Positions 593-36,915 of a DNA stretch of 64,000 nt are shown here, piece by piece. The DNA lies in the NCBI GenBank assembly GCA_034429995.1, contig DAOUEZ010000012.1, forward strand, positions 15,464 to 79,463, in the 5' to 3' direction. The notes below the pieces were generated by a model that saw nothing but the letters and a program-made list of their open reading frames with translations, was not told the origin of the DNA and did no database searches. The translations under genes and the position numbers were made by a program. This DNA comes from Dehalococcoidia bacterium. GTDB lineage: Bacteria > Chloroflexota > Dehalococcoidia > SM23-28-2. The number at the start of each line of letters is the position of its first letter. The first letter of the stretch is position 1.

Positions 593-594
593 CC

Positions 595-2577
595 ATGGAA
601 GAGCCAAGAATCGGCGTATTTGTCTGCCACTGCGGGAGCAACATTGCGGACACCGTAGATGTTGACGAGGTGAGGGAGTTTGCCAGCGGGTTGCCCGGGG
701 TTGTGTTATCTGTGGACTATAAGTTCATGTGCTCCGAGCCTGGACAGCTCCTAATCAAGGAGAATATAGAGAAGCTGCACCTCAATCGGGTGGTGGTGGC
801 TTCCTGTTCCCCCCGCATGCACGAGCCTACCTTTCGCAAGGCCGTGGCTGAGGCGGGGCTGAACCCCTACCTCTTTCAGATGGCCAACATCCGCGAGCAT
901 GATTCCTGGGTCCACAAGGACGGCGCCACTGAGAAGGCCAAAGCCCTGGTCCACGCCGCCGTCCAGAGGGCTAGCCTGCTGGAGCCTCTGGAGAGAAGGG
1001 AAGTGCCGGTAACTCCCACTGTGTTGATAGTGGGTGCCGGCATTGCCGGCATCCAGGCGGCCCTAAACATCGCTGACTCTGATCACAAGGTGTACTTGGT
1101 GGAGCGAGAGCCCTCCGTCGGCGGCCGCATGATCCAGCTAGACAAGACCTTCCCCACTCTAGACTGCTCATCCTGCATTCTCACGCCCAAGATGGCCTCC
1201 GTTGGCTCCCATCCGAACATCGAGCTTATGACCTACAGCGAGGTGGAGGAGGTCTCCGGCTACATCGGCAACTTCAAGGTCAAGGTTAGGAAGAAGCCTC
1301 GCTACGTGGACTCAGAGCTCTGCAACGGCTGCGGCCTTTGCATCGAGAAGTGCCCCTGGAAGGCGGACAGCGAGTTCGATATGGGGCTAGGCAAGCGCAA
1401 GGCGATCTACACGCCCTTCCCCCAGGCGGTGCCCAACGTGCCGGTCATCGACACGGAGACCTGCGTCTACTTCAAGAAGGGGACCTGCAGGGCCTGCGAG
1501 AAGCTCTGTCCCACGAAAGCCATCGCCTTCGATCAGAAGGAGGAGACCGTCGAGCTAGAGGTGGGGGCGATAATCGTGGCCACCGGCTACGACCTTTTCG
1601 ACCCCTCTCCTATCACTCAATACGGCTACAAGCGCCTGGACAACGTTTTCACTAGCCTGGAGTTCGAGAGGATGTGCAGCGCCACCGGCCCTACCGGCGG
1701 TGAGCTGGTGTTGAAGGATGGCAGCACTCCCCAGAGCGTGGCCATCATCCACTGCGTGGGCAGCCGCGACAAGAACTACTATGAGTATTGCTCACGCGTC
1801 TGTTGCATGTATGCCCTCAAGTATTCCCACCTGATAAAGGAAAAGACCGAGGCAGACGTGTACCAGATGTACATCGACATGCGCTGCTACGGAAAGGGCT
1901 TCGAGGAGTTCTACCAGCGTGTGTCCGACGAGGGCGTCAACTTCGTGCGGGGCAAGGTTGCCCAGGTCACCGACCAGGCGGCAACCGATGAGGAGCAGGG
2001 TAAGCTGGTGGTCGTCGGCGAGGACACCCTGCTGGGCAGGATGGTGCGCATCCCGGTGGACATGGTTATTCTCTGTCCGGCCATGATAGCACGGGCCGAT
2101 GCCGAGGAAGTGGCCAGGCGTTTCCTCATCAGTCGGGGTGCCGATGGGTTCTTCTTGGAGAAGCACCCCAAGCTGGAGCCGGTGGCCACCGCCAGTGCGG
2201 GCGTGTTCGTGGTTGGCTGTGCCCAGGGGCCCAAGGACATCCCGGACACCGTGGCTCAGGCCTCGGCGGGGGCGGCAGAGGCCCTGGCGCTAATCGACAG
2301 GGGGACGGTGGAGATCGAGGCCGCCACTGCCGTAGTGGATGAGGAAATGTGCTCCGGTTGCAAGATCTGCCTGAACTTGTGTCCCTACGGTGCCATCACC
2401 TTCGATGAGGAGAAGGATGTGGCCAGGATCAACGAGGTGCTCTGCAAGGGGTGCGGCGTTTGCGTTGCCGCCTGTCCTTCGGGGGCCATTAAAGGCCGCC
2501 ACTTCACCGACAAGCAGATCTTTGCCGAGATCGAGGGTCTGCTGGCGGACGTCAAGCTGCCCTTGGTGGCAGTTTAA
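595..2577 (+). CDS. hdrA: Heterodisulfide reductase subunit A (FAD/FeS flavoprotein)
   Basis: MEEPRIGVFVCHCGSNI N-terminus, GAGIAG dinucleotide fold, multiple Cx2Cx2Cx3CP ferredoxin motifs; RBS GGAGG 8 nt upstream of ATG 595; long ORF 520..2577 trimmed to the internal ATG. Confidence 0.85.
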   Translation: MEEPRIGVFVCHCGSNIADTVDVDEVREFASGLPGVVLSVDYKFMCSEPGQLLIKENIEKLHLNRVVVASCSPRMHEPTFRKAVAEAGLNPYLFQMANIREHDSWVHKDGATEKAKALVHAAVQRASLLEPLERREVPVTPTVLIVGAGIAGIQAALNIADSDHKVYLVEREPSVGGRMIQLDKTFPTLDCSSCILTPKMASVGSHPNIELMTYSEVEEVSGYIGNFKVKVRKKPRYVDSELCNGCGLCIEKCPWKADSEFDMGLGKRKAIYTPFPQAVPNVPVIDTETCVYFKKGTCRACEKLCPTKAIAFDQKEETVELEVGAIIVATGYDLFDPSPITQYGYKRLDNVFTSLEFERMCSATGPTGGELVLKDGSTPQSVAIIHCVGSRDKNYYEYCSRVCCMYALKYSHLIKEKTEADVYQMYIDMRCYGKGFEEFYQRVSDEGVNFVRGKVAQVTDQAATDEEQGKLVVVGEDTLLGRMVRIPVDMVILCPAMIARADAEEVARRFLISRGADGFFLEKHPKLEPVATASAGVFVVGCAQGPKDIPDTVAQASAGAAEALALIDRGTVEIEAATAVVDEEMCSGCKICLNLCPYGAITFDEEKDVARINEVLCKGCGVCVAACPSGAIKGRHFTDKQIFAEIEGLLADVKLPLVAV

Positions 2578-2593
2578 GGAGGCGCAGTTAACC

Positions 2594-3025
2594 ATGGTAT
2601 CGGGCAACTACGAGCCGACGATTGTGGGGTTCCTGTGCAACTGGTGTGCCTATCAGGGAGCGGACCTAGCGGGCACCTCCCGCATGGAGTATCCGCCCAG
2701 CGTGCGTCCGGTGCGGGTGATGTGCAGCGGCCGTATCGACCCCACCTTTATCCTGAAGGCCTTCGCCGAAGGAGCTGACGGTGTGCTGATTGGTGGCTGC
2801 CATCCGGGCGACTGTCACTATCTGGAGGGCAACTACAAGTGTATTCGCCGCATGGCTATGGTCCACAGGGTGCTGGAACAGTTCGGGATCGAGCCGGAGC
2901 GTTTCCGTGTGGAGTGGGTTTCCGCCAGTGAGGCCCCGAAGTGGGCCAAGATATGCAAGGAGATGACCGAGCAGGTGAAAGCCTTGGGTCCACTTCAGTG
3001 GCAGGAGAAGGTTAGGACGGCCTAG
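2594..3025 (+). CDS. mvhD: Methyl-viologen-reducing hydrogenase delta subunit (MvhD) family protein
   Basis: MVSGNYEPTIVGFLCNWCAYQGADLAG...CHPGDCHY is the MvhD/FlpD signature; AAGGAGG RBS before ATG 2594. Confidence 0.8.
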   Translation: MVSGNYEPTIVGFLCNWCAYQGADLAGTSRMEYPPSVRPVRVMCSGRIDPTFILKAFAEGADGVLIGGCHPGDCHYLEGNYKCIRRMAMVHRVLEQFGIEPERFRVEWVSASEAPKWAKICKEMTEQVKALGPLQWQEKVRTA

Positions 3026-3063
3026 GATGCCGAGTCTGTGGCCTTGGGCTCGGCGGAAGGCCG

Positions 3064-3111
3064 GAGACGAAGGTCGAGACGAAGGTCGAGACGAAGGTCG
3101 AGACGAAGGCC
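3064..3111. repeat. 12-bp tandem repeat gagacgaaggtc x4 (last copy degenerate) in mvhD-mvhG intergenic region
   Basis: Direct reading of sequence 3064-3111; reflected as FVSTFVSTFVST in an antisense spurious ORF. Confidence 0.9.
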
Positions 3112-3141
3112 GAGAGCGAGAAGACGTTAGGGAGGCCTAGG

Positions 3142-4140
3142 ATGGCAAAGCCGAAGATGGCCCTATACTGGGCAGCCAGTTGTGGTGGCTGCGAGATAGC
3201 TGTGGTGCGGCTGTACGAGAAGATTCTAGATGTGGCCAACGCCTTCGAGATCGTTCTCTGGCCGTGCATTATGGACTTCAAGTACAAGGACGTAGAGGCC
3301 CTGCCGGACAAGAGCATTCTGATAACTCTCTTCAATGGTGCCATCAGGAACTCCGAGCAGGAGCACATGGCCCACATGCTGCGGGAGAAGTCGCAGGTGT
3401 TGGTGGCCTTCGGGTCCTGCGCTCACCTGGGCGGCATCCCCGGTCTGGGCAACGTGAGCAACCGCCAGGGGATTTTCGAGAGTTCCTACTGCGAGACGCC
3501 CTCTACGGTCAACGAGGAGGGCACCTACCCGCAGCTAAGCTTCCAGGTGCCCGAGGGGGAGCTTACCCTGCCGGAGTTCTACGACACGGTCTGCGCTCTT
3601 GATCAGGTAGTGCCGGTCGATTACTACATCCCCGGCTGCCCGCCAACGAAGGAGCAGATAGAGAAGGTGATCCAGGCGCTCATAGAGGGGGCGGAGCTGC
3701 CTCCAGCCGGTTCGGTGATCGGGGCATCGGAGAAGACGGTGTGCGATGACTGCCCTCGCACCAAGGGGGACAAGTCGATCAAGGCCATATATCGCCCCTA
3801 TCAGATCATCCCCGACCCCGAGAAGTGCCTTCTGGAGCAGGGTATTCTCTGTGCCGGGCCCGCCACCCGTGGCGGCTGCGGCGCGCCCTGTCCCCAGGTG
3901 AACATGCCCTGCATCGGCTGCTACGGGCCGGCGCCAGGGGCGGTGGACCAGGGAGCCAAGCTTCTGAGTGCAGTGACATCCAATATCGATTCCCGCGATC
4001 CAGAGGAGATCGAACGGATACTGAGCGCCATTCCCGACTCTATCGCCGCCTTCTACATGTTTGGCCTGCCCGCATCGCTTCTGCACCGCCTGAGGCTGGA
4101 GCGGCAGCGCGAGGCAGTGTCGGCCGAGGCGGGGCAGTAG
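3142..4140 (+). CDS. mvhG: [NiFe] hydrogenase small subunit (group 3, MvhG-like)
   Basis: N-terminal CGGCEIA and multiple Cys clusters (CPRTKGD, CIGCYGP) typical of NiFe small subunit; GGGAGG RBS. Confidence 0.8.
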   Translation: MAKPKMALYWAASCGGCEIAVVRLYEKILDVANAFEIVLWPCIMDFKYKDVEALPDKSILITLFNGAIRNSEQEHMAHMLREKSQVLVAFGSCAHLGGIPGLGNVSNRQGIFESSYCETPSTVNEEGTYPQLSFQVPEGELTLPEFYDTVCALDQVVPVDYYIPGCPPTKEQIEKVIQALIEGAELPPAGSVIGASEKTVCDDCPRTKGDKSIKAIYRPYQIIPDPEKCLLEQGILCAGPATRGGCGAPCPQVNMPCIGCYGPAPGAVDQGAKLLSAVTSNIDSRDPEEIERILSAIPDSIAAFYMFGLPASLLHRLRLERQREAVSAEAGQ

Positions 4141-4200
4141 CGGCTCGCGGCCTTCTGAGGCCCAAGAGTGGAGTGGCAGGGAGCGAGGAGCGGAAAAGAG

Positions 4201-5685
4201 ATGACAGAGGCCAAGGTGGAGACGCGGCGAATAACCATTGACCCTATTACGCGGCTGGAAGGACACGGCCGCATCGAGATCTTCCTCAACGATGAGGGGG
4301 ACGTGCAAAACGCCTACTTCCAGGTGCCGGAGTTGCGGGGGTTCGAGAAGTTCTGCGAGGGGCGGCCGGTAGAGACCCTCCCCGTCATTACTGCCCGCAT
4401 TTGTGGGGTTTGCCCCGAGGCGCACCACATGGCCTCCACCAAGACTCTCGATGCAGTCTTCAAGGTGGATCCGCCCTCCCCTGCCAAGAAGCTGCGGGAG
4501 CTGCTGTACAGTGCCTTCATGGTGGCCGACCACGCCACTCACTTCTACGCCCTGGGCGGCCCCGACTTTGTGGTAGGGCCGGACGCCCCTGCCGCCGAGC
4601 GCAACATCGTCGGGGTCATCGGCAAGGTAGGGATGGAGATTGGGGGACAGGTGCTGAAGGCTTTGGCCGCTACCCACGAGGTGGTGGCCATGCTCGGCGG
4701 CAAGTACATCCACCCCACCTGCGGCCTGCCCGGCGGCATAAGCAAGGGCCTCAACGAGGAGGAGCGGGCCAAGGTCGAGGAGATCGCCAAGGCGGCGATC
4801 GAGTTCGGCAAGCTGACGATCAAGATCGTGGACGACGTAGTGCTGGCCAACAAGGCCTACGTGGACATGATCCTCAGCGACACCTTCGCCCACGAGACCT
4901 ACTACATGGGCCTGGTGGACGAGAATAACCACGTGAACTTCTATGAAGGCCAGCTGCGAGTCGTCGACCAGCAGGCCAAGGAAGTGGCCAAGTTCCCCCC
5001 GTCTCAGTACCTGGACTACATTGGCGAGCACGTGGAGCCTTGGTCGTATCTCAAGTTCCCCTTCCTCAAGAGCGTCGGCTGGCACGGCCTGACAGATGGG
5101 CCAAGCAGCGGCATCTACCGGGTAGCTCCCCTGGCTCGCCTCAACGCCGCCGACGGCATGGCTACTCCCCTGGCCCAGGCGGAGTACGAGCGGTTCTACT
5201 CCACCCTGGGGGGCAAGCCGGTGCACGCTACGCTGGCCACCCACTGGGCACGCGTTGTTGAGTTGGTGTACGCCGCCGAGCGCCTGCTGGAGCTGAGCCA
5301 AGACCCGGAGATAACCAGCACGAACATCCGCACCATTCCCACCGAGACGCCCGGCGAGGGCGTGGGGGTGGTGGAGGCGCCGCGGGGGGTGCTGATTCAC
5401 CACTATTGGGCAGACGAAAACGCGGTGGTGAAGAAGGTCAACCTCATCGTGGGGACGGGCCACAACAATGGGGCTATCGCCATGTCCATCAACAAGGCGG
5501 CCAAAGGCCTGATCAAGAAGGGCACGGTGGTCACCGAGGGCCTTCTCAACACCATCGAGATGGCTTTTCGGGCCTACGACCCGTGCTTGGCCTGTGCCAC
5601 CCACTCCTTGCCGGGGCAAATGCCCCTGATCGTCAGCATCTACGACAGCCAGAGGAACCTTATCCAGAGCCTCAGAAGGGACTAG
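4201..5685 (+). CDS. mvhA: [NiFe] hydrogenase large subunit (group 3c, MvhA-like)
   Basis: L1 motif RICGVCPEAH and L2 motif DPCLACATH; start moved to ATG 4201 (MTEAKVE) with upstream GGAG. Confidence 0.85.
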   Translation: MTEAKVETRRITIDPITRLEGHGRIEIFLNDEGDVQNAYFQVPELRGFEKFCEGRPVETLPVITARICGVCPEAHHMASTKTLDAVFKVDPPSPAKKLRELLYSAFMVADHATHFYALGGPDFVVGPDAPAAERNIVGVIGKVGMEIGGQVLKALAATHEVVAMLGGKYIHPTCGLPGGISKGLNEEERAKVEEIAKAAIEFGKLTIKIVDDVVLANKAYVDMILSDTFAHETYYMGLVDENNHVNFYEGQLRVVDQQAKEVAKFPPSQYLDYIGEHVEPWSYLKFPFLKSVGWHGLTDGPSSGIYRVAPLARLNAADGMATPLAQAEYERFYSTLGGKPVHATLATHWARVVELVYAAERLLELSQDPEITSTNIRTIPTETPGEGVGVVEAPRGVLIHHYWADENAVVKKVNLIVGTGHNNGAIAMSINKAAKGLIKKGTVVTEGLLNTIEMAFRAYDPCLACATHSLPGQMPLIVSIYDSQRNLIQSLRRD

Positions 5686-5688
5686 CGG

Positions 5689-6153
5689 TTGCGGACCCTC
5701 ATCCTGGGTCTGGGCAATCCTATCCTCTCCGATGACGCCGCTGGTCTTCAGGCTGCCCGTCGGCTATATGAGCTGATGGGGAGCGGGGACATCGATCTGG
5801 TGGAGGCGGCGGTAGCGGGAATGCAGACTGTCCAGCTTCTGTCCGGCTACGACCGGGCGGTCATCATCGATGTGGTGCAGGACGAGGCGAGCGTGGGAGA
5901 GGTCTGGCGCCTGGATACCGGCGACCTGGAAAGCGGCTCCTCAACGTCCAGTCATGGCATCGGCCTGGGCGAAGCTCTGCGTCTGGCCCGGCTGATGGGC
6001 TTGCCCGTACCAGAGCAAATACTGATCTACGCTATCGCTGCCGCTGATACTTCCACCTTTGGCGAGAGCTTGACGCCTAAGCTCGGGAAAGCCCTACCCG
6101 CCATCGTCCGCAGGATCGCCGCCGACCTGGCCCGTCCTTCGGGCCAGTGCTAA
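5689..6153 (+). CDS. Hydrogenase maturation endopeptidase (HycI/HoxW/FrhD family)
   Basis: LILGLGNPILSDDAAG and GIGLGEAL motifs typical of hydrogenase C-terminal processing protease; TTG start with GAAGGGA RBS, 3 nt after mvhA stop. Confidence 0.7.
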   Translation: MRTLILGLGNPILSDDAAGLQAARRLYELMGSGDIDLVEAAVAGMQTVQLLSGYDRAVIIDVVQDEASVGEVWRLDTGDLESGSSTSSHGIGLGEALRLARLMGLPVPEQILIYAIAAADTSTFGESLTPKLGKALPAIVRRIAADLARPSGQC

Positions 6154-12766: not shown

Positions 12767-12837
12767 GGCCGCTCATCCTGAGCCTGTCGAAGGGTGAGCG
12801 GGGGCTCATGGTTCGACAAGCTCACCATGAGCGGCCC
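12767..12837. repeat. REP-like palindromic element (SLSKGE-type repeat family)
   Basis: gagcctgtcgaagggtgagcgg core plus gctcatggt/accatgagc inverted repeat; same core recurs in opposite orientation at 35307-35438. Confidence 0.6.
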
Positions 12838-27457: not shown

Positions 27458-28711
27458 ATGAGAGTGCGTCGCCTCCAGCTATCCGATTATCGCAACTTCC
27501 CCCGGCTGGACTTCGCTCTCCCCGCTGGGCCAGTGGTCATTGTGGGGGGCAACGCCCGGGGCAAGAGCAATCTTCTGGAGGCGGTCTGTCTCCTTTCGAC
27601 GATGCGCTCGCCCCGGGCCGACAGCGATGGCGAGCTGATCCGCCGGCAGGCTGCCCAGGCGATGGGGACGCCGCCCCTGGCCCGCCTGGTGGCCGAGGTG
27701 GAGAGGGATAGTGGGCCTCTGCGGCTGGAGATGGTCATCGTTGCCCGCAGCGGAGGCCTGGGCTCCCTTGCTGCCCGACCCGCTGGCGTCCCCCGTGCCA
27801 ACAAGGTGGTGCGGGTGAACGGCGTCGCCAGGCGCCTGGCCGACGCCGTGGGTCAGCTGAACGCGGTGCTGTTCACCGCCCACGACATGGAGGTAATTGA
27901 CGGCCCACCGTCCCTGCGCCGGCGCTATCTGGATATCACCATCTCTCAGGTGGACAGGGGCTACCTGCGGGCCCTTCAGCGCTACGCCAAGGTGCTCCTC
28001 CAGCGCAACCATCTCCTGAAGCGAGTGCAAGAGGGCAGCGCCCGCCGAGAGGAACTGGCCTTCTGGAGCCAGGAGCTAGTGCGGGAGGGCAGTTACATCA
28101 TCTGGGCGCGGGCCCAGACGGTGGCTAGCCTGGGGCCCCTGGCCGCGGCTGCCCACGCCGCCCTAACCGAGGGGCAGGAGGAGCTGACGCTGGTCTACCA
28201 GCCCCAGTTGGGGGGAGCGGTCGACGGTCTCCAGGCCGCCTCCCTCAGCCAGAGCGAGCTTGCTGCAGCCTTCGCTCAGGTCGTGGGTCGCTGGGGTGAG
28301 CGGGAGATAGGAGCCGGCGCTTCCCTTCTGGGCCCTCACCGCGACGATCTGCTGTTCCACCTTAACGGCATCTCGGCAGCTACCTTTGCCTCGCGGGCCC
28401 AGCAGCGCACCATCGCCTTGGCCCTGCGCCTGGCCGAGGCCCGCTACCTCCTGGAACGACGAGGCGAGTCGCCAGTCCTCCTTTTGGACGACGTCCTCTC
28501 GGAGTTGGACGGCGGGCGGCGGGCGGCGGTGCTGGCTGCCATCGCCGACTACGAACAGGTGCTGGTTACGGCCACGGAGCTGGATCGCTTCTTGGCAGAC
28601 TTCCTGAAGGGCGCGAACCTATTCCAGGTGGCTGGAGGCTCGCTGGAGGCTGTGGTTGGGGCTTCCGGCGCCGAAACAGGGGAATCCTCTTCCGGGGCAC
28701 CATCACCGTGA
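27458..28711 (+). CDS. recF: DNA replication and repair protein RecF (with low-complexity C-terminal tail)
   Basis: Walker A GGNARGKSNLLEA, signature LSQSELAAAFAQ... region, Walker B LLLDDVLSELD. Confidence 0.85.
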   Translation: MRVRRLQLSDYRNFPRLDFALPAGPVVIVGGNARGKSNLLEAVCLLSTMRSPRADSDGELIRRQAAQAMGTPPLARLVAEVERDSGPLRLEMVIVARSGGLGSLAARPAGVPRANKVVRVNGVARRLADAVGQLNAVLFTAHDMEVIDGPPSLRRRYLDITISQVDRGYLRALQRYAKVLLQRNHLLKRVQEGSARREELAFWSQELVREGSYIIWARAQTVASLGPLAAAAHAALTEGQEELTLVYQPQLGGAVDGLQAASLSQSELAAAFAQVVGRWGEREIGAGASLLGPHRDDLLFHLNGISAATFASRAQQRTIALALRLAEARYLLERRGESPVLLLDDVLSELDGGRRAAVLAAIADYEQVLVTATELDRFLADFLKGANLFQVAGGSLEAVVGASGAETGESSSGAPSP

Positions 28712-29585
28712 GGGCCGCTGGCGCAACCTCAAAGACCGTGGGATAGCCAGGGTAGAAATCGCCGTCGAGCTGCACCGGCAGGGGCCTCTCGCTGTGCACC
28801 TCCAGCCGACGCGCCCGTCGGTAGAGGACGGGGCTTGCTCTCAGGTGCGCCTGGGCTGCTACCCGCAGGGTGTGGAAGATGATGTCCAGGGTGTGGCGCC
28901 CCTGAAAGATGCACGTGTCCAAAAGGCCGTCGTCGGCGTAGGCGCGGGACGTCACTTGGGTAATGCCGGCGTAGTTGCGGGTATTGCCCACCACCATCAT
29001 CAGAAGACTGGTCTCCAGTGGCTCATCGTCGACGATCAGCTTGACCCGCTGGCCCCGGTATCGCAGAGATTGGCCGACGGCGATGAAGGCATAGGTAGTA
29101 GCGCCCAGATATCGCTTGATGTTCAAGGGCAGGGAGGCGGCGATCTGCCCGTCCAGGCCTAGGCCGGCCATCAAGAAGAAGTAGCGCGCTTTCCCTCCTG
29201 ACTGCGCGCTGGCCCGACCCAGATCCATGCGCCGCGCCTGACCGCCTACCGCCGCCTCGAGGGCAGCGATGGGCTGGCGAGGGATGCCCACCTCCTTGGC
29301 CCAGACGTTGGCTGTGCCCGCCGGAATGACCGCCAGGGGCGTTTGGCTGCCGGCCAGGCCGTTCACCGCCTCGTTGAGGGTACCGTCGCCGCCGCAGACT
29401 ATCACCAGCGAGCGCTCCTCCTGGGCGGCGCGAGCGGCCATGGCTGTAGCGTCGCCCGGCGAGTGGGTGAAAGCCCAGTCCGCCTGCCAGCCCTGGCTGT
29501 GCAGCCAGGAGGCGGCCTCTCGCAGATGGCGACGGGAGGGCAGATTGGGGGCGGCGGGGTTAACGATTACGGTGGCCGACTGCAT
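28566..29585 (-). CDS. Diacylglycerol kinase catalytic-domain lipid kinase (YegS/BmrU/DagK family)
   Basis: LVIVCGGDGTLNEAVNGL and AVIPAGTANVWAKE motifs; 3' end overlaps recF by 146 bp in Pro-rich tail. Confidence 0.7.
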   Translation of the reverse strand: MQSATVIVNPAAPNLPSRRHLREAASWLHSQGWQADWAFTHSPGDATAMAARAAQEERSLVIVCGGDGTLNEAVNGLAGSQTPLAVIPAGTANVWAKEVGIPRQPIAALEAAVGGQARRMDLGRASAQSGGKARYFFLMAGLGLDGQIAASLPLNIKRYLGATTYAFIAVGQSLRYRGQRVKLIVDDEPLETSLLMMVVGNTRNYAGITQVTSRAYADDGLLDTCIFQGRHTLDIIFHTLRVAAQAHLRASPVLYRRARRLEVHSERPLPVQLDGDFYPGYPTVFEVAPAALTVMVPRKRIPLFRRRKPQPQPPASLQPPGIGSRPSGSLPRSDPAPWP

Positions 29586-29656
29586 GAGTGGTTCGCTCCA
29601 GGGCCATGCTAGCGTCCAGCCAGGGAGGGGGCAAGGGCATTGCGTCGTGGCAGTGG

Positions 29657-30694
29657 CTAGGCTGTCTCTGGAGCTGTTTCCTCTGCCGGCTCGACGGGGG
29701 GCGTCGGGCGCAGGAGCTCCAGGTCGGCTTCGTTCCCTAGCACCATCAGGCGGTCGCCCAACTCCAGGATAGTGGTTCCCCGCGGGCCCACCTGAGTGGC
29801 GCCGCTGGGCTTCTGAAGGGCGAGGACGGTGGTGTCAGGACAGGCCTGGAAGCATCCCTCGATGGTCATGCCGGCCAGTCCCGACTCTTCGCTTGCCTCC
29901 AGTTCCGCCAGGATCTGCTCGCCTTGGTGACCTTTGACTAGGGTGTCGATGAAGTCCACCACCAGGGGCTGGAGAGCGGAGAGGGCCATACGCCGCCCGC
30001 CGATGCTGTAGGGGGAGATGACCCGATCGGCGCCTGCCCGCAGCATTGGCGTTGTGCTGGCCGGCTGGCCCACGCGGGCCACCACGAACAGGCGGGGGTT
30101 GAGGGCCTTGGCGGTGAGGACGATGTAGGTGTTGCCGGAGTCAGAGTCGGAGGCGGCCAGCAGGCAGCGGGCACGCTGGATGCCGGCCTTGAGGAGGGTG
30201 GCGTCGGAGGTGGCATCGCCTTCGACCAGCAGGTAGTTTTGCTTGCGGACTCGCTCTATGGCCTCTGGGTTGGAGTCGACGATGACGAGGGGCACGCCCC
30301 GAGCTGTGAGGTCGCGGGCGATCTCCTCGCCCACCCGGCCGAACCCGCAGAGGATGTAATGGTCACGTAAAGCCTCGATCTTTCCCCTCATTCTACGCAC
30401 CCCCAGTAGACTCTCCAACTCGCCTTCCACGGCTAGCTGCATCACCGCTGTCAGGATGTACAAGATAACCACGATCCCCACGACGATAATAACGATGGTG
30501 AAAACGCGTCCCGCATCCCCTAGCGGGTTGATCTCCCCGAACCCCGCCGTCGTTATGGCCGTGATGGTCTGGTAAGCGGCGTCGAGGAAGCTGAAGCCCT
30601 CGATGGTGATGTAGCCGATAATGCCCACCGCCCACAGAACGAGGGCGGCGGTGCCGCCAAGGGCTAACCTCTGCCAGGGGGTGAGCGGTCTCAC
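29657..30694 (-). CDS. RCK (TrkA-N/TrkA-C)-gated potassium channel, MthK-like
   Basis: Two TM helices flanking pore TTAGFGE selectivity-filter-like sequence; Rossmann GFGRVG of RCK domain; C-terminal TrkA-C. Confidence 0.7.
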   Translation of the reverse strand: MRPLTPWQRLALGGTAALVLWAVGIIGYITIEGFSFLDAAYQTITAITTAGFGEINPLGDAGRVFTIVIIVVGIVVILYILTAVMQLAVEGELESLLGVRRMRGKIEALRDHYILCGFGRVGEEIARDLTARGVPLVIVDSNPEAIERVRKQNYLLVEGDATSDATLLKAGIQRARCLLAASDSDSGNTYIVLTAKALNPRLFVVARVGQPASTTPMLRAGADRVISPYSIGGRRMALSALQPLVVDFIDTLVKGHQGEQILAELEASEESGLAGMTIEGCFQACPDTTVLALQKPSGATQVGPRGTTILELGDRLMVLGNEADLELLRPTPPVEPAEETAPETA

Positions 30695-30730
30695 GCCTGC
30701 AGCTCACCCTTCGCCGCTGGCTTCCGCCTC

Positions 30731-32809
30731 TCAGGCGTCACTGATCCGCCTGCGCTTCTGCGCCACATAGTCCACCATGATGTACTGGCCCAGCCTATCG
30801 GGCGTAGTGTAGAACACTCGCCCCTTGTTCATACTGGCGATCTGATTGACGAACTCCTTGAGGTAATAGTTACGGTCGAGCATGAAGGTGTTGATGATGA
30901 TCCCCTTGCGGGTGGCGCGGCGCACCTCCCTGAGGGTCTCGCGGATGGTGATGGGGCTGGGTGGGTAGGCAAAGAAGGAGCGGCCGTGCTCCAGGTGAGC
31001 GGTGGGCTCGCCGTCGGAGATCATGATCACCTGGCGGGTGCCTGCCTTGTGCCTGGCCAAGAGCCGTTGGGCGAGCATGAAGGCGTGGTGCATGTTGGTG
31101 CCCAGCACCGATTCGTCCCAGCGAAGGTAGGGAAGCTGCTCCGCGGTTAACTCGCGGGCGTAAGCGGAGAAGCCCAGGATGTAGAGGGTGTCGCGGGGGA
31201 ACTGGCTGCGAATGAGGTTGTTCAGGGCCAGAGCCACCTTCTTGGCGGCCTGGAAGCTACCCCGCAGGGCCATGGACCAGGAGAGGTCGAGCATCATCAC
31301 CGTGGCCGTCTGGGTGAGCTGCTCCGAGCGGTAGACCTCGAAGTCGTCCTTGTCCAAGTGCAGAGGCAGGCCCGGCCCCTCGCGGAAGACGGCGTTCATG
31401 ATGGTTTGGCCGAGGTGGAGGTCGAAGCGGTCACCGAACTCGTACCTCTTGATCTCGTCGGTGCGCTCGCCGCCCGAGCCGCGCTCAGGCAAGGGATGCT
31501 TGCCCTGGGCGCCTTTCTTGAGCTGGGCGTAGATCTCGCCCAGGGCCTTCTGGCCGATCTTGCGGATGGCGCGAGGGGTTAGCTCCCAGGTTGCCCCCTT
31601 GCGGCGAATGTAGCCCGCCTCCTCCAGCACCTCCAGGAATTGCCTGAGCTGGCGGAAGGTCTCGTAGGCCTCCTCGCCCAGGAGTTCCCGTAACTTATCC
31701 TCGTCGATGTCGTCGACGTTGCCGCCATACTGCATGCGCTCCAACTGCCTCTCCAGCTCGTCCAGTCCCTGGAGGCGGTCCATGAGGCGCAGGGCCTCAA
31801 GGAGGTCCAGCTCCTCATCGCCGTGGAAGGGATAGCGGTTGCTCGGGTCGCGCATGGGGTGGAGGATGTCCAGATTGACGGCCAGCTCGTACAGGTCGTG
31901 CTGAAGCTCAGGGTCGCTGGTCTTCTCCATCAGCAGGTCCTGAAGCTGGCGGCGCATGTCGTCGGGCAGGCTGTCCAGAAGGCTCTGCATGACGGAGAGC
32001 TGGTGCTGCATTTGGGCGATCAGTTCCTCCAGGCTCTGAGGCCCCGACTCGTCGGGGAACATGTCGCCGTAGCTCTGCATGAACTGCTGGAAGTCCGGCT
32101 GGCCGTCGGCCATCTTCTCGGAGAGCATATGGTTCAGCTCGCGCACCATCTCCTTGAGGCGCTGCATCTCCTCGGGCGTCAGGCTGGCGATCTGGCTGGA
32201 TAGGTTCCTGAAGAAGGAGTCCATCATCGCCTGCTTGAGCATCTCCATGAGCTCCTGGAACTTGCGGCCAGCCTCGGGGTCCATGAACTCGTAGTTCTGC
32301 AGCTCCTTCACCTGGCCGCCCACGTCCTCGGGCAGGCTCTCCAGGAAGTCCTTCTTCTTCTCAGCGATGTCCTTGAGCATCTGGGCGAACTGGCGATCCG
32401 GTTGACCCTGTTGGACGCCGGCCTCCTTCATCGCCTCCTGGAAGGCGTGGAGGGGGCTCTCCCGCCCCTCAAGCTGGCGGACGGCCTCGTCCAGCCGTCG
32501 CTCGACGGTCTCATTCTCCAGCCGCACGATCTCTTGCAGGCGCTTCTGGATGTCGTCGAGCGCTGAGCTCAGGTTGTAGTGGTCAAGCATCTGGCGGCGT
32601 TGCTGGCGAAGCTGCTGCAGGAGCTGGCGCAGGCCCTGGAAGCGCTGGCCGAGGGGATTGTGCATGCCTCGCTGTAACAGGTTGCGCAGGGCGTGCTGAA
32701 GGTCACCGAAGCTCATCAGGTCGTCGGTGATGCTGGCCAGGACGTCGTCGGCGTCCAGGGGCGGTATGTCCTGGCTGCCGTCCCACTCCGAGTAGCGGTA
32801 GGCGTACAT
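30731..32809 (-). CDS. ChlD/NorD-like protein: long coiled-coil Gln/Glu-rich region plus C-terminal VWA domain
   Basis: C-terminal MIDAS MMLDLSWSMA...ISDGEPT; operonic with ChlI-like ATPase (1-bp spacing). Confidence 0.6.
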   Translation of the reverse strand: MYAYRYSEWDGSQDIPPLDADDVLASITDDLMSFGDLQHALRNLLQRGMHNPLGQRFQGLRQLLQQLRQQRRQMLDHYNLSSALDDIQKRLQEIVRLENETVERRLDEAVRQLEGRESPLHAFQEAMKEAGVQQGQPDRQFAQMLKDIAEKKKDFLESLPEDVGGQVKELQNYEFMDPEAGRKFQELMEMLKQAMMDSFFRNLSSQIASLTPEEMQRLKEMVRELNHMLSEKMADGQPDFQQFMQSYGDMFPDESGPQSLEELIAQMQHQLSVMQSLLDSLPDDMRRQLQDLLMEKTSDPELQHDLYELAVNLDILHPMRDPSNRYPFHGDEELDLLEALRLMDRLQGLDELERQLERMQYGGNVDDIDEDKLRELLGEEAYETFRQLRQFLEVLEEAGYIRRKGATWELTPRAIRKIGQKALGEIYAQLKKGAQGKHPLPERGSGGERTDEIKRYEFGDRFDLHLGQTIMNAVFREGPGLPLHLDKDDFEVYRSEQLTQTATVMMLDLSWSMALRGSFQAAKKVALALNNLIRSQFPRDTLYILGFSAYARELTAEQLPYLRWDESVLGTNMHHAFMLAQRLLARHKAGTRQVIMISDGEPTAHLEHGRSFFAYPPSPITIRETLREVRRATRKGIIINTFMLDRNYYLKEFVNQIASMNKGRVFYTTPDRLGQYIMVDYVAQKRRRISDA

Positions 32810-32810
32810 C

Positions 32811-34211
32811 CTACCCCCTATACTGGGCCCGGCCGGCGATCTTGTCCTTGTTGAGGCGTCGGTTGAGGTGCAGGCCCTCCAGCACGAACTCCACCGCCGC
32901 GGCCGTGAGGCCGGGTCGGCCTTGCCCCTCCAGCTTCTCCACTGCCCGTGCCAGTCCCTCCACCTTCTTAGTCATGCGCACGTATTCGGCGGAAGGGATG
33001 GTGTCGGCCACCTCCAGCGTAAACCCTTCCTTGAAGCGAGCCACCACCGGCTCCAGCTCGCTGAGGCTTAGATGGCGGTTGAACACCGTGCTCACCGCCC
33101 CCTGGATGAACTTCTCGATGATCTGCCCTTCTCGCTCTTCCTCCACCGTCTCGAACTCCAGCTTGCCGCTAAGGGAGGGGATGATGTAGGGCAGGTCGCT
33201 GATGCGGGGCACGATGTCTCTTTCCTGCAGGCGAATGGCGCGGCGGAAGGCGTTGGCCAGGAGGCTCTCGTAGCCGGTGATGGAGGCCCGCACGGAGACG
33301 CCGGAGCGCTGGTTGATATCGGGGCTGCGGCGAGCCAGGCGGGTGATCTCGGCCACCACTTCCTTCATGTAGGGCGGCACAGTTACCGGACGGCCGTCTC
33401 CTTCGAAGGGGGTGCGCTCCTGCTCCATGATGGCGATCTCGTATTCGGCGTTGCGGGGATAATGGGTGCGAATCTGAGCGCCGTAGCGGTCCTTGAGGGG
33501 GGTGATGATGCGGCCGCGATTGGTGTAGTCCTCGGGGTTGGCGCTGGCCACTACGAAGACGTCCAGGGGCAGGCGGATGCGATAGCCGCGGATCTGGACG
33601 TCTCGCTCTTCCATGATGTTGAAGAGGCCCACCTGGATGCGCTCCACCAGGTCTGGGAGCTCGTTGATGCAGAAGATGCTGCGGTTGTGGCGAGGGATGA
33701 GGCCGTAGTGAATGGTCAGCTCATCGGAGAGGTAGCGGCCCTCGGCCACCCTTATGGGGTCCACCTCGCCGATGAGGTCGGCGATGGTGATGTCGGGGGT
33801 GGCCAGCTTCTCGCCGTAGCGCTCGTCGCGACCGAGCCAGGTGATCTCCACGTCCTCTCCCTCTTCGGCCAGCCAGTCGCGGCAGCGCTTGCAGATGGGG
33901 TGATAGGGGTTGTCGTTGATCTCGCAGCCGGCGATGGCCGGCACTTCGTCGTCGAGCAGTGATACAAGGGCGCGAATAAGGCGCGACTTGGCCTGCCCCC
34001 TCTCGCCCAGGAAGATGATGTCCTGGCCGGAGAGGATGGCGTTCTCCAGGTGGGGAATCACGGTATCGTCAAAGCCAATAATGCCCGGGAAAAGCCGCTC
34101 GTTGGAGCGGATCTTCGCGATGAGGTTCCGGCGCATCTCCTCCTTGACGCTGCATACCTGGTAGCCGGAGCTGCGTAGCTCACCAATGGTTGTCGGTTTC
34201 TTGCTGGTCAC
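32811..34211 (-). CDS. ChlI/BchI-like AAA+ ATPase (Mg-chelatase I-subunit family)
   Basis: Walker A GERGQAKS, Cys-containing insertion (CEINDNPYHPICKRCRD) as in ChlI, Walker B/sensor region FCINELPDL, arginine finger region. Confidence 0.65.
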   Translation of the reverse strand: MTSKKPTTIGELRSSGYQVCSVKEEMRRNLIAKIRSNERLFPGIIGFDDTVIPHLENAILSGQDIIFLGERGQAKSRLIRALVSLLDDEVPAIAGCEINDNPYHPICKRCRDWLAEEGEDVEITWLGRDERYGEKLATPDITIADLIGEVDPIRVAEGRYLSDELTIHYGLIPRHNRSIFCINELPDLVERIQVGLFNIMEERDVQIRGYRIRLPLDVFVVASANPEDYTNRGRIITPLKDRYGAQIRTHYPRNAEYEIAIMEQERTPFEGDGRPVTVPPYMKEVVAEITRLARRSPDINQRSGVSVRASITGYESLLANAFRRAIRLQERDIVPRISDLPYIIPSLSGKLEFETVEEEREGQIIEKFIQGAVSTVFNRHLSLSELEPVVARFKEGFTLEVADTIPSAEYVRMTKKVEGLARAVEKLEGQGRPGLTAAAVEFVLEGLHLNRRLNKDKIAGRAQYRG

Positions 34212-35263
34212 GGCGCTTCCTTGCTGGCTCCTCGTGCCCCACCCCCTTGCCCCTCCTGGGCGAGGAAGCGAGCCACCTCATCCCTGGCGAATGTGGACAG
34301 GGCCATCGTGCCGCCGCCACGTTTTCCTATTATAACGCCCGCATCCTTTGGTGTAACCGTGCCGATGCGCGCGGCAGCTATGCCTGCCTCCTCCAGAGCG
34401 GCCAGGAGTCGGTCGCTGTCCTGCGGGGGTAGGGCTATGAGCAGGGCACCCGAAGCGAGCAGCCCCAGCGGGTCCAGCCCCGCTGCCTGGCACACGGCCC
34501 GAGTGGCTGGCAGCACGGACACCGCCGCCTCTTCGAGCCGCATTCCCACGTCCGAGGCCTCGGCCATCTCATAGAGGGCGGTGGCCAGACCTCCTTCGGT
34601 GGGGTCGTGCATGGCGTGGACGGAGGTCTTGTCCACCGCCAGGAGGGCCTCCCTGACCACGCTGATGCCCGGCTGGAAGATGTAGCCCCTGGCCGTCTCC
34701 AGCACGTCGGCGGCCACGCCCTTGCGGCGCAGGGCATCCGCTGCCTCGCGGGCGAGCACCGCCGTGCCCTCGATGGCGATGCCCTTGGTCAGGATCACGT
34801 GGTCGCCCGGCTGGGCTCCCGACCCTCGCACCAGCCTGTCGCGTTCCACCTCCCCCAGCATTGCCCCCACCACGATCGGCCGGTCGAGGCGATGGGTGAT
34901 CTCGAAGTGGCCGCCGACGAGCTCGACCTTCATTTGGCGGCAGGCGTCGAGGATCTGGTCGAATATGCCCTCCGCCAGCGACTGGCCGGCCCCCTCGGGC
35001 AGGAGGACGGTGGCCAGGAACCAGGCCGGCCTGGCCCCCATGCAGGCCACGTCGTTGGCGTTGATGTGGACGGCGTACCAGCCGATGAGGTCGGTGGCGA
35101 AGGTGATGGGGTCGCTTTTGGCCACCAGCAGCCGGGGGCCCATGTCGATGACGGCAGCGTCCTGGCCCACCCCCGGCCCCACCAGCACGCGCCCCGACTC
35201 GTCGGGGCCGATGCGGGCCAGCAGCTGGCCTAGGAGCTGATTGGGAAGCTTGCCGATATCCAT
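34208..35263 (-). CDS. AIR-synthase-related protein (PurM fold; HypE-like but lacking C-terminal PRIC motif)
   Basis: AKSDPITFATD and INANDVACMGA motifs align to HypE/ThiL/PurM N-domain; DPTEGGL in C-domain; C-terminus GASKEAP (no PRIC); 4-bp overlap with downstream ATPase gene. Confidence 0.55.
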   Translation of the reverse strand: MDIGKLPNQLLGQLLARIGPDESGRVLVGPGVGQDAAVIDMGPRLLVAKSDPITFATDLIGWYAVHINANDVACMGARPAWFLATVLLPEGAGQSLAEGIFDQILDACRQMKVELVGGHFEITHRLDRPIVVGAMLGEVERDRLVRGSGAQPGDHVILTKGIAIEGTAVLAREAADALRRKGVAADVLETARGYIFQPGISVVREALLAVDKTSVHAMHDPTEGGLATALYEMAEASDVGMRLEEAAVSVLPATRAVCQAAGLDPLGLLASGALLIALPPQDSDRLLAALEEAGIAAARIGTVTPKDAGVIIGKRGGGTMALSTFARDEVARFLAQEGQGGGARGASKEAP

Positions 35264-35306
35264 CGTGGTTGGGTCACCATCGAGACTCTTGGCAAATGCC
35301 CCGTTC

Positions 35307-35438
35307 GCCCTTCGACAGGCCCTTCGGCTGCGCTCAGGACAGGCCCTTCGGCCGCGCTCAGGGCAGGCCCTTCGACAGGCTCAGGGTGAGCGGTCTTGAG
35401 TCCTATGCATATCGCCGCTCGTGGTGAGCCTGTCGAAC
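35307..35438. repeat. Cluster of REP-like repeats (three tandem caggcccttcg..gctcagg units plus inverted copy), SLSKGE-type family
   Basis: Direct reading; core ttcgacaggctcagggtgagcgg is reverse-complement match (1 mismatch) of element at 12767-12837; spurious ORF here translates PEPVEGPALSAAEGP. Confidence 0.65.
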
Positions 35439-35649
35439 CATGAACGGACATGCGGGGTATTTCAACAGGCTGCATCGTTTCCCGAAGCCTTGGCTCGAAT
35501 CATACTATGTGGCGACGTGGCGTCAAGCCAGATGGGCCTGGCTGTCTTCCATCGCGGCTCTTCCCTTGCCAGCCCTCGCGGCTGCGAGTAGAATAGGGCC
35601 GCCGTCGAGGCGTGACGTTACGTAGCGAGCTTCCAGGAGGGCGAGGCAA

Positions 35650-36699
35650 ATGGCAAACGACGAGCACGTCAGGGTAGTGCGGCAGGGCGCGGAGGCCATA
35701 GCCGAGTGGCGGTGGCGGAACCCCACGGGGGGGCTTGATCTGTCCGGGGCTCGCCTCGCGGAGGCTATGCTACCCCAAGCGGACCTCGTTTTGGGGGACC
35801 TGAGCAGGGCGGACCTCCATGAGGCTAACCTGGCCGGGGCTCTTCTGTCGTTCGCTAACCTCGACCGGGCCTACCTTTTGGGCGCCAACCTCTCAGGGGC
35901 CGACCTCAGAGGGGCGTGGCTGGGGGAGGTGAACTTCGCATTTGCGGATCTAGAAGGGGCCAATCTCAGCGAGGCCTTTCTCCACGGTACTAGGTTCGAG
36001 GCGTCCGTGGTGTCCCAGGCTGATTTCTCGAACGCCAAGTTAAGCTACGCGTCTTTCGCTGGCGTGGATCTGAGCCAGGCTCGTGGGTTGGGAAGGGCCG
36101 ACCACAGGGCGCCTAGCAGCGTCGGCGTCGAAAGCCTCCTAGCCTCGGTGCGTGGAGCGGGAAACCAGCTGACGCCGGACCTCCGGACGTTCTTCCGAAG
36201 CGCCGGCGTGCCCGCGGAGCTGCTGGAGGCGCTACCCCGGATCGTAGCCGCGGTGCAATACTACAGCTGCTTCGTTGCCTATGGGGAGCCTGACGTGGCA
36301 TTCGCTCGCGAGCTGTGCGAGCACCTAACGGGTAAGGGTGTCTCTTGCTGGCTGTATGAAATGCACGCGACCCCGGGCCAGCGCACGTGGACCGAGATCG
36401 TCCGCAGGAGGCGGGAAGCCGACAAGGTCGTGGTGGTCTGCTCCGCCGATGCGCTGGTGCGCGACGGGGTGCTCAAGGAGATCGAGGAACAAGTAGATGA
36501 AGATCCTGACAAGATCGTCCCGATCTCCCTGGATGACCTCTGGAAGGCACCCGGCTTCAGGGTCATGCGCGCAGAGCGTGACCTAAAGCCCTATTTGCTG
36601 GAGCGGAACCACGCGGACTTCGCCAACCTCGACTACGAGGACGCGCTGGAGCGTCTACTAAAGGGGCTGAGGCGAGAAACCGAGCAGAAGGACGAGTAG
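35650..36699 (+). CDS. Pentapeptide-repeat / TIR-domain fusion protein
   Basis: N-terminal residues approx 28-170 are A(D/N)LxxA(N/D)L pentapeptide repeats; C-terminal CFVAYGEPDVAFARELCEHLTGKGVSCWLYE...KVVVVCSADALVRDGVLKEIEEQ matches TIR_2 pattern (FxSY..D..FA..L...L...G...W...vvvlS...SxW...E) including candidate catalytic Glu. Confidence 0.55.
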   Translation: MANDEHVRVVRQGAEAIAEWRWRNPTGGLDLSGARLAEAMLPQADLVLGDLSRADLHEANLAGALLSFANLDRAYLLGANLSGADLRGAWLGEVNFAFADLEGANLSEAFLHGTRFEASVVSQADFSNAKLSYASFAGVDLSQARGLGRADHRAPSSVGVESLLASVRGAGNQLTPDLRTFFRSAGVPAELLEALPRIVAAVQYYSCFVAYGEPDVAFARELCEHLTGKGVSCWLYEMHATPGQRTWTEIVRRRREADKVVVVCSADALVRDGVLKEIEEQVDEDPDKIVPISLDDLWKAPGFRVMRAERDLKPYLLERNHADFANLDYEDALERLLKGLRRETEQKDE

Positions 36700-36915
36700 G
36701 CCGTCCTGCCGCTGGCTAGCGCCCCGGCCAAACGTTGACACCTATCGGAACCTGCTGCTAAACTCAGGCGAATGGACGGAGCCCCGGTCTGAATGTAGCC
36801 TGCTCTTGCTGGTGGTGGAAGCCCGGCAAGGTGGTGGAGGGAGATCGAAGAGCTACTTCTAGACTTCGTCGAGTACGTCTACGACCTCATCGAGTGGCCA
36901 GGGGTCATCGCCCTG

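Follow-up and report, generated by a model that had tools for sequence, protein, structure and literature searches.

A ChlI-like AAA+/VWA gene pair beside a HypE-like enzyme in a Dehalococcoidia bacterium: probably a remodeling pair with an independent, lineage-specific neighbor

Three adjacent minus-strand genes in a 64,000-nucleotide stretch of DNA from a Dehalococcoidia bacterium (contig DAOUEZ010000012.1, hereafter the window) raise the question of whether a HypE-like enzyme, a ChlI-like AAA+ ATPase and a VWA protein work as one system or merely lie side by side. A preliminary description had left the trio unassigned, offering a metal-insertion or maturation machine, a link to a distant hydrogenase, or a conflict module as candidates. 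We refer to the genes as P1 (34208–35263, 351 aa), P2 (32811–34211, 466 aa with a GTG start) and P3 (30731–32809, 692 aa); the window sequence confirms their coordinates and strand as first given, and because each has thousands of homologues we take all three to be real genes. The last codons of P1 are CCG TGA, and the GTG within them is the P2 start codon, so that stop and start overlap in a 4-nt GTGA (34208–34211, minus strand, read directly from the sequence), with a Shine-Dalgarno-like AAGGAAG upstream of the P2 start. The P2/P3 junction reads TAG-G-ATG, so the second junction is a 1-nt spacer at 32810 and not the 1-bp overlap originally reported. In more distant members of the same clade, P1 and P2 are separated by ~14–70 nt and do not overlap; the overlap points to coupled translation in the closest relatives of the window, and the tight co-directional packing itself is real in this genome and kept in its own clade.

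P1 belongs to the PurM/AIRS superfamily, matching Pfam AIRS at 73.8 bits (cut-off 24) and AIRS_C at 92.7 bits (cut-off 23.1), and it keeps the conserved acidic and Gly motifs of the superfamily. Within the HypE/SelD/ThiL branch, its scores stay under the cut-offs for HypE (TIGR02124, 129.1 bits against 251.6), ThiL (TIGR01379, 111.4 against 184.15) and SelD (TIGR00476, 90 against 125), and P1 is thus not a bona fide HypE or ThiL by these scores. A P1 profile run against the PDB finds HypE at 2e-30, SelD at 2e-20 and ThiL at 4e-18, and HypE proteins are its best solved relatives, with ~30% identity and PDB matches at 6e-27. P1 has the PurM fold of HypE, which acts as carbamoyl dehydratase in the maturation of [NiFe]-hydrogenases, and DPT(R/E)GG is among the motifs that the two have in common. 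In HypE, however, a C-terminal Cys carries the carbamoyl/cyano group, whereas P1 ends in ...GARGASKEAP without the PR[IV]C tail, its final Cys is C258, and a C-terminal Cys is absent from every P1-family member of the alignment. These matches and the position of the last Cys uphold the preliminary view of a PurM/HypE-fold protein that lacks the PRIC cysteine and is not a canonical HypE. The GDTK and ANEGK motifs have catalytic roles in HypE; in an alignment to four solved HypE proteins, all of which have both, they are replaced in P1 by GGHFE and ASGAL, respectively. The P1 N terminus, MDIGKLP, has no Cys and so lacks the Cys/Sec of the N-terminal Gly-rich loop of SelD. Without the self-substrate Cys tail and signature motifs of HypE and the N-terminal Cys of SelD, P1 would be expected to act on a substrate different from theirs.

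The AAA+ core of P2 is of the ChlI type and has the insertion characteristic of that type behind Walker A; a ~190-aa C-terminal extension follows the core. Behind the Walker A helix, LLDDEVPAIAGCEINDNPYHP of P2 lines up with the ChlI/BchI segment LLPEIPVVANDPFNSDPSDP / EIEAVEGCPVSS, which is why we call the insertion ChlI-like, and the pre-Walker B segment PGL..ANRG...E is another point of likeness. Walker A is GERGQAKS (residues 69–76; 33984–34007, minus strand, from the translation) and reads GERGQAK[ST] in 67 of 72 P2 orthologues. Walker B differs from that of ChlI/BchI in having Asn183-Glu184 (hhhhNE, not hhhhDE; 33660–33665, minus strand, placed by alignment), and this Asn is shared by all 72 orthologues. 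Conservation in the alignment extends to Walker A, Glu184, the sensor-1 Asn225 and Arg242/Arg308. The insertion carries a Cys triad, C96-x10-C107-x2-C110 (33882–33926, minus strand, translated as CEINDNPYHPICKRC), and the preliminary description had taken a Cys-containing insertion as typical of Mg-chelatase I subunits. The alignment bears out the ChlI-like insertion itself but not Cys as a ChlI hallmark, as the triad is invariant among close clade relatives only, occurs elsewhere in 21 of 72 orthologues, and is otherwise replaced by S..S..A/G. RefSeq names P2 a sigma-54 regulator and other databases name it "magnesium chelatase," but our results bear out neither name. The structure model of P2 is weak (pLDDT 69).

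P3 opens with a helical N-terminal part (residues ~1–400) and closes with a C-terminal VWA/MIDAS domain, a middle region lying between the two. Precomputed Pfam annotation of the identical protein gives PF27532 (Mb0984_helical), PF27098 (Rv0959_3rd) and PF13519 (VWA_2, residues 503–601), and the first two are found on all 120 P3 homologues among the matches listed, placing P3 in the Rv0959/Mb0984 family. The MIDAS motif D508-L-S510-W-S512 (DLSWS) lies at 31274–31288 on the minus strand (from the translation), and D508, S510, S512, T571 and D599 are invariant in the alignments. In an AlphaFold2 model of low confidence (pLDDT 49), the N-terminal ~400 aa are all-helical; a fold search on this model was dropped because the model was too poor, and a profile search of the PDB with P3 returned generic VWA matches only. 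The domain calls first made for the three proteins (PurM/HypE fold, ChlI-like AAA+, C-terminal MIDAS VWA) were right.

P2 and P3 travel together over a wide range. Of the P2 loci, 75 could be evaluated, and they represent at least eight phylum-level groups, including Chloroflexota, Actinomycetota, Binatia and Rokubacteria; 58 of them have P3 no more than 8 kb away, 43 of these directly downstream and the other 15 elsewhere in that range. P2 occurs at one place per matching record, and its identity is 53–60% between Chloroflexota and Actinomycetota, Binatia or Planctomycetota loci; against actinobacterial orthologues the P2 of this window is 48–58% identical. A ~460-aa ChlI-like ATPase adjoins the Rv0959-family gene upstream in Actinomycetota, including Mycobacteriales, which would place P2 in the Rv0958 family. 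The pair is also carried by Thermomicrobium roseum, and in Tsukamurella the gene order is purN-purH-...-P2-P3. We take the order of Rv0956–0959 in M. tuberculosis to be the same as in Tsukamurella. The closest known counterparts are, in M. tuberculosis, Rv0958 (annotated as "possible magnesium chelatase") and Rv0959 (a conserved hypothetical protein) and, in M. smegmatis, MSMEG_5512 with its neighbor; the Pfam domains of P3 were built on Rv0959/Mb0984, and Actinomycetota have the pair in the same gene order. Most Actinomycetota copies differ in lacking the Cys triad that this Chloroflexota copy has, and the window copy differs from the Rv0958/Rv0959 family in having a HypE-like gene upstream. 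No third gene family recurs across phyla beside P2-P3 in 80 P2 neighborhoods. We rejected sdhCAB, a GH2 glycosidase and formiminotransferase as third partners, each being confined to Actinomycetota and therefore reflecting lineage synteny, and the inserted genes that separate P2 and P3 in Actinomycetota are heterogeneous. Our literature search covered Rv0958/Rv0959, MSMEG_5512 and AIRS+VWA+AAA+ operons and turned up no study of function; MSMEG_5512 has surfaced only in interaction screens with RNA polymerase and with ClpC1, with no DNA association.

P1 has a very different distribution from that of the pair. A P1-like gene neighbors P2 at one of 80 P2 loci and is missing at the other 79; conversely, P2 lies downstream of P1 in 10 of 64 P1-family loci and is absent from 54. 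The lone P1-like neighbor among the P2 loci (L032) is a distant gene, 41% identical to P1 and likewise upstream of P2-P3, and all 10 P1-P2 loci fall in a single Dehalococcoidia clade of the P1 tree. Within that clade the P1-P2 adjacency is kept down to ~56–64% P1 identity, and it survives in three genomes where P3 has moved away or is separated (L086, L172, L173). The clade also contains loci where P1 is followed directly by a K+ channel gene and P2-P3 are absent (L093 and L094, ~91% identical in nucleotides over the P1 gene), one with P1 alone (L085) and one with P2 but neither P1 nor P3 (L174). The flanking VTT domain, Tricorn-like, DUF6391, K+ channel and DAGK genes are syntenic across the clade as well, so that the P1-P2 adjacency can reflect inherited gene order. 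The neighbors of P1-family genes include VTT/DedA, histidine kinase, PLP enzyme and permease genes, and P1-family neighborhoods have no thiamine, selenium or hyp genes. The trio is thus not one conserved system: co-conservation of the three genes in relatives fails outside one Dehalococcoidia clade and partly fails inside it, where the packing does hold.

From these data, we favor, with some confidence, a reading in which the locus is an AAA+/VWA remodeling pair, P2-P3, plus an independent lineage-specific neighbor, P1, that shares its transcript in this lineage. The mechanism of the pair would be as follows, wholly by analogy with the MoxR-class AAA+/VWA chaperone pairs NorQ-NorD, CbbQ-CbbO and RavA-ViaA (PMC9976466, PMC4660213, PMC10585395) and with ChlI-ChlD. 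P2 presumably forms a ring and P3 would serve as its adaptor, as in those systems; the P3 MIDAS site would bind an acidic residue, either on a client protein or on the ATPase itself, and P2 would use ATP to remodel the client, for example, so that a cofactor or metal can be inserted or a complex assembled. The two-gene architecture and the VWA partner with an N-terminal helical part and a C-terminal MIDAS match the MoxR-class pairs. P2, in contrast, appears closer to ChlI than to the MoxR class, with AAA_3 under its cut-off (21.5 bits against 27) and AAA_5 borderline (23.5 bits against 22, with no single stretch passing), and no client operon (nor, cbb, frd) adjoins P2-P3; the client would not be encoded by a conserved gene next to the pair. 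P1 would then be an ATP-dependent PurM-superfamily enzyme, closest to HypE and separate from P2-P3, and its position upstream of P2 would be the ancestral gene order of one Dehalococcoidia clade rather than a part that defines the AAA+/VWA system. Of the metal-insertion or maturation machine first suggested, what stands is a generic metal-insertion or remodeling chaperone as the best analogy for P2-P3 only, and the inclusion of P1 does not hold.

A different reading keeps all three genes together as a machine of this Dehalococcoidia clade, in which P1, having no Cys tail itself, would act in trans, using ATP to activate a ligand or protein side chain, and the P2-P3 motor would deliver the product to a client or insert it there. 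The adjacency, the distant P1-like gene upstream of P2-P3 in L032 and the 4-nt overlap are all compatible with a real functional link in the clade; the P1-P2 order also persists over considerable divergence and where P3 is displaced, and P2 is found next to P1-family genes more often than any other neighbor (11 of 80 loci). We nevertheless consider this machine improbable, as each partner is missing from most loci of the other, the adjacency is monophyletic and part of a wider block of conserved synteny, the clade itself includes derivatives with P1 only or P2 only, the Cys triad of P2 does not correlate with P1 adjacency, and we found no such trio described in the literature. A bolder form of it, in which a HypE-like enzyme that lost its Cys tail was recruited as the third subunit of a ChlI/ChlD-like motor, activating with ATP a ligand or partner residue that the pair installs in a client, is a somewhat longer shot. 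If true, it would add a machine of a new kind to those known for cofactor maturation and provide a first lead on what the Rv0958/Rv0959 family does. Far less plausible is that P1 is the HypE of the organism, or an auxiliary maturation factor, and that the operon matures the [NiFe]-hydrogenase that does lie, with an HdrA-like protein, ~29 kb away at 520–5685, as the preliminary description had noted. HypE is the closest characterized relative of P1, and this hydrogenase and its maturation protease have no hyp genes alongside. On the other hand, P1 scores half of the HypE cut-off, lacks the C-terminal Cys and has both signature motifs replaced, no hydrogenase subunit was found within 6–8 kb of 160 related loci, and the 5-kb flanks of P2-P3 in Mycobacteriales and Thermomicrobium hold unrelated genes in place of hydrogenase or hyp genes. 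The proposed link of these genes to the hydrogenase thus finds no support in the neighborhoods.

Could the pair instead be a true chelatase motor of class I, for Mg or Co, equivalent to ChlI/ChlD or CobS/CobT and serving a tetrapyrrole chelatase? ChlI/BchI are the best sequence and fold matches of P2, P2 and P3 both weakly match TIGR02442 (fused putative cobaltochelatase), P3 resembles ChlD/BchD in its C-terminal MIDAS VWA, and the database name points the same way. We find this very hard to sustain, because the scores (41.8 against 466.95, the former being that of P2 with TIGR02030, a ChlI/BchI family of ~340–380 aa, and 35 against 779) are far under the cut-offs, P2 is longer than ChlI/BchI by its added C-terminal domain and has the Asn-Glu Walker B, and no large partner family recurs in the 80 P2 neighborhoods, judged by family recurrence. 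P3, moreover, has no match to TIGR02031 (ChlD/BchD) and no AAA match, its N terminus being helical where that half of ChlD is AAA-like. Hardly more credible is a role of the pair in conflict or phage defense, as a module of the MoxR-VWA type that may work with the divergent gene upstream of P1 (35650–36699), which encodes a TIR_2 domain and weakly matches the PADLOC model Aga_TIR. Some AAA+/VWA pairs do occur in conflict systems. Against this, PADLOC gave no match for P1 or P2 and weak coiled-coil matches only for P3 (E≥3e-4), which we regard as noise, the TIR gene is absent from this position in related loci, and P2 is well conserved across phyla, sits beside housekeeping genes in Actinomycetota, and in the plasmid collection is found on only four replicons, all non-mobilizable and 0.4 to 11.9 Mb in size. 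Neither PADLOC nor the plasmid search therefore lends the conflict-module idea any support.

The apparently unassignable trio probably resolves, then, into a catalogued orphan pair and a lineage-specific neighbor, and not into a new system. The pair is highly conserved and widespread, has no assigned function, and by its domains and gene order appears to extend to M. tuberculosis; the Asn-Glu Walker B, the facultative Cys triad and the absence of a conserved third gene may be useful hallmarks for characterizing the family. Around the locus, the region 29500–36800 contains no Rfam families or riboswitches, and no GIY-YIG remnant lies upstream of P1 in the window. A consensus scan picks out a promoter-like site upstream of P1 (TTGACG-16-TATGAT, 35499–35526, minus strand) and a second inside the 3′ end of P1 (GTTACA-17-TATAAT, 34329–34357), which could drive P2-P3 separately from P1. 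The TrkA-type K+ channel gene (29657–30694, minus strand, Pfam Ion_trans_2/TrkA_N) begins 36 nt downstream of P3 and is a syntenic neighbor, probably co-transcribed with P3, that lies outside the module.

We find the three consecutive minus-strand ORFs of the preliminary description in our ORF scan, and they encode a HypE-like protein of the PurM superfamily (P1, 34208-35263, 351 aa), a ChlI/BchI-lineage AAA+ ATPase with a GTG start (P2, 32811-34211, 466 aa), and a VWA protein (P3, 30731-32809, 692 aa). Reading the sequence at the junctions, the reported 4-bp overlap of P1 and P2 is a GTGA in which the stop codon of P1 overlaps the start codon of P2, closely preceded by an AAGGAAG site, but the 1-bp overlap reported for P2 and P3 is instead a single-nucleotide spacer (TAG-G-ATG). 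The earlier observation holds after two minor corrections, and its interpretation is partly supported. Sigma-70-like sites, by consensus match only, lie 5′ of P1 (35526-35499, minus strand) and inside the P1 3′ end (34357-34329, minus strand). Downstream of P3, 36 nt away and on the same strand, is a gene for a TrkA-type K+ channel, so more than three genes may be transcribed together, and no Rfam family or riboswitch was detected in the region around the three genes (29500-36800). The nearest relatives come from sediment metagenomes and belong to uncultured Dehalococcoidia, and identical copies of P1 are present on JGI contigs.

The only solved structures that match P2 by sequence are ChlI/BchI, and when P2 was used as a profile LonB-type modules were matched too. 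P2 comes nowhere near the curated HMM cut-off for BchI-ChlI (41.8 vs. 466.95), and it has a C-terminal extra of ~190 residues. We compared the Walker motifs of 72 P2 orthologues (from loci L005-L084), all of which have a Walker A that reads GERGQAK[ST] or nearly so and a Walker B whose Asp is replaced by Asn (hhhhNE; P2 residues 183-184, window 33660-33665). Judged from this alignment, the Asn is a hallmark of the P2 family and may point to slow, switch-like, or regulated ATP hydrolysis. The insertion described as ChlI-like and Cys-containing is indeed ChlI-like, but its Cys triad (C-x10-C-x2-C), while invariant among close relatives, occurs in just 21 of the 72 wider orthologues, the others having Ser/Ser/Ala-Gly at these positions. 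This facultative pattern suggests that the triad is a dispensable structural metal site.

The N-terminal region of P3 is helical and the MIDAS residues of its VWA domain are invariant; precomputed Pfam annotation of a protein identical to P3 reports Mb0984_helical (PF27532) and Rv0959_3rd (PF27098). There are 3900 clusters at 50% identity that match P2, and a scan of species-representative genomes gave 80 P2 loci from Chloroflexota, Actinomycetota, Binatia, Rokubacteria, Dormibacterota, Gammaproteobacteria, Myxococcota, and Planctomycetota. At the 75 loci where the available sequence sufficed to place P3, it is directly 3′ of P2 in 43, non-adjacent but within 8 kb in 15, and absent from the P2 flank in 17, including Tepidiforma flava, where P2 is solitary. 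RefSeq replicons name P2 a "sigma 54-interacting transcriptional regulator" and P3 a "VWA domain-containing protein." In Tsukamurella, the pair follows purN-purH, the same order as in M. tuberculosis (Rv0956 purN, Rv0957 purH, Rv0958, Rv0959). Across phyla no third gene family recurs beside the pair; sdhCAB, GH2, and formiminotransferase genes were rejected as conserved neighbors because they recur in Actinomycetota only, and the genes that separate P2 from P3 in that phylum are heterogeneous. Literature searches found no functional study of the family. MSMEG_5512 has been recovered, showing no association with DNA, in a pull-down of RNA polymerase, and it is present in a ClpC1 interactome. 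The P2-P3 pair here is a new member of a catalogued, functionally uncharacterized family.

P1 contains the AIRS and AIRS_C domains of Pfam and scores under the cut-off of every curated equivalog tried, namely hypE (129 bits vs. 251.6), thiL (111 vs. 184), and selD (90 vs. 125). When solved structures were ranked using a P1-family profile, HypE came first (E = 2e-30), followed by SelD (2e-20), ThiL (4e-18), and PurM (2e-14). In residue-level alignments, GGHFE and ASGAL of P1 stand where four of four solved HypE proteins have GDTK and ANEGK, and the C-termini of P1 and its relatives have a conserved FARDEVARFL ahead of a variable, Cys-free tail. The acidic and Gly-rich motifs of the superfamily (D35, D51, N68, D71, D220, and TEGG) are invariant in the P1 family. 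The earlier view that P1 is not a canonical HypE is borne out by all of the HypE-specific tests (score, GDTK/ANEGK, and Cys tail), and the low scores, substituted motifs, and Cys-free tail together place P1, on sequence grounds, in a separate branch of the HypE/SelD/ThiL group. A small N-terminal GIY-YIG domain (PF01541) with a low-complexity linker is called as fused in 7 of 120 P1 homologues (P0162, P0174, P0199, P0205, P0213, P0222, and P0229; loci L086 6001-7383 and L173 2484-3962); a mobile GIY-YIG gene may have inserted 5′ of P1 and then been read through, and the window has no remnant of one.

Evidence from both the P1 and the P2 sides indicates that P1 is usually not part of the P2-P3 system, and the proposed three-gene unit is not conserved. 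A P1-like gene is nearby at 1 of the 80 P2 loci (L032, 41% identity, 218-nt gap), and P2 is downstream in 10 of the 64 loci that had at least 400 nt downstream, out of 80 P1-family loci (49-92% identity) from a metagenome scan. In a neighbor-joining tree, the P2-adjacent P1 copies all fall in one clade, window included, within which we find every arrangement: P1-P2-P3 (window, L088-L090, L095, L097, and L137), P1-P2 with P3 relocated (L086 and L172), P1-P2-X-P3 (L173), P2 alone (L174), and P1 then directly the K+ channel gene (L093 and L094, about 91% nt identity over P1). At L085, a P1 homologue with 61% identity adjoins an ECF sigma factor and has neither P2 nor P3 nearby. Since the flanks are syntenic throughout the clade (VTT domain, Tricorn-like, DUF6391, K+ channel, and DAGK), the P1-P2 adjacency may be inherited gene order. 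We conclude that P1 is a lineage-specific neighbor of the pair. That P1 is nonetheless functionally linked to P2-P3 would fit with P2 being the commonest neighbor of the P1 family, with P1-P2 adjacency outlasting P2-P3 adjacency within the clade, and with L032, which may be an independent second juxtaposition, but the low counts from both sides and the syntenic flanks make such a link unlikely.

The other roles considered fare worse. A connection to the hydrogenase of the window (520-6153; HdrA-like Fe-S flavoprotein, [NiFe]-hydrogenase small and large subunits, and maturation protease), as had been suggested, is very unlikely because no hydrogenase subunit was found within 6-8 kb of any of 160 related loci and P1 passes none of the HypE-specific tests; no hyp genes lie beside the cluster. 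The suggested MoxR-VWA conflict module is likewise very unlikely, since PADLOC gives no match for P1 or P2 and coiled-coil noise only for P3, and the strongly conserved pair occupies one place per matching record and occurs in the plasmid collection on only four non-mobilizable replicons (0.4 to 11.9 Mb). A true chelatase is also very unlikely, as scores are far under the cut-offs, P3 lacks the AAA-like half of ChlD, and no partner family, such as ChlH/CobN, was found to recur in the 80 P2 neighborhoods.

By analogy with ChlI-ChlD, NorQ-NorD, CbbQ-CbbO, and RavA-ViaA (PMC9976466, PMC4660213, PMC10585395), from which we largely infer the mechanism as a whole, P2 would form an ATP-driven ring and P3 would be an adaptor whose MIDAS site may engage an acidic residue on either the client or the motor. 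Client specificity would come from the conserved helical region of P3, and hydrolysis of ATP would drive remodeling of the client, plausibly so that a metal or cofactor can be inserted or a complex assembled. That P2 and P3 are so highly conserved argues for a conserved housekeeping protein as the putative client.

The window has other elements around these genes. A divergent gene (35650-36699, plus strand) encodes pentapeptide repeats and, at the C-terminus, a TIR_2 domain; PADLOC matches it weakly (E 5e-8) to TIR proteins associated with Argonaute. This gene looks like a variable insertion because it is missing at this position in related loci. Convergent RecF/SMC_N-like (27458-28711, plus strand) and DAGK-like (28566-29585, minus strand) ORFs overlap, as called, by an unusually long 146 nt, and the call may extend the C-terminal tail of the RecF-like ORF too far. 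The P1 leader contains a REP-like palindromic element (window 35290-35445) made of a 13-bp inverted repeat (TTCGACAGGCTCA / TGAGCCTGTCGAA) and then three tandem units of CCTGAGCGC.GCCGAAGGGCCTGTC, which resembles "PVEG/LSAAEG" repeats when translated and has a partial related copy 22 kb off (window 12769-12835).
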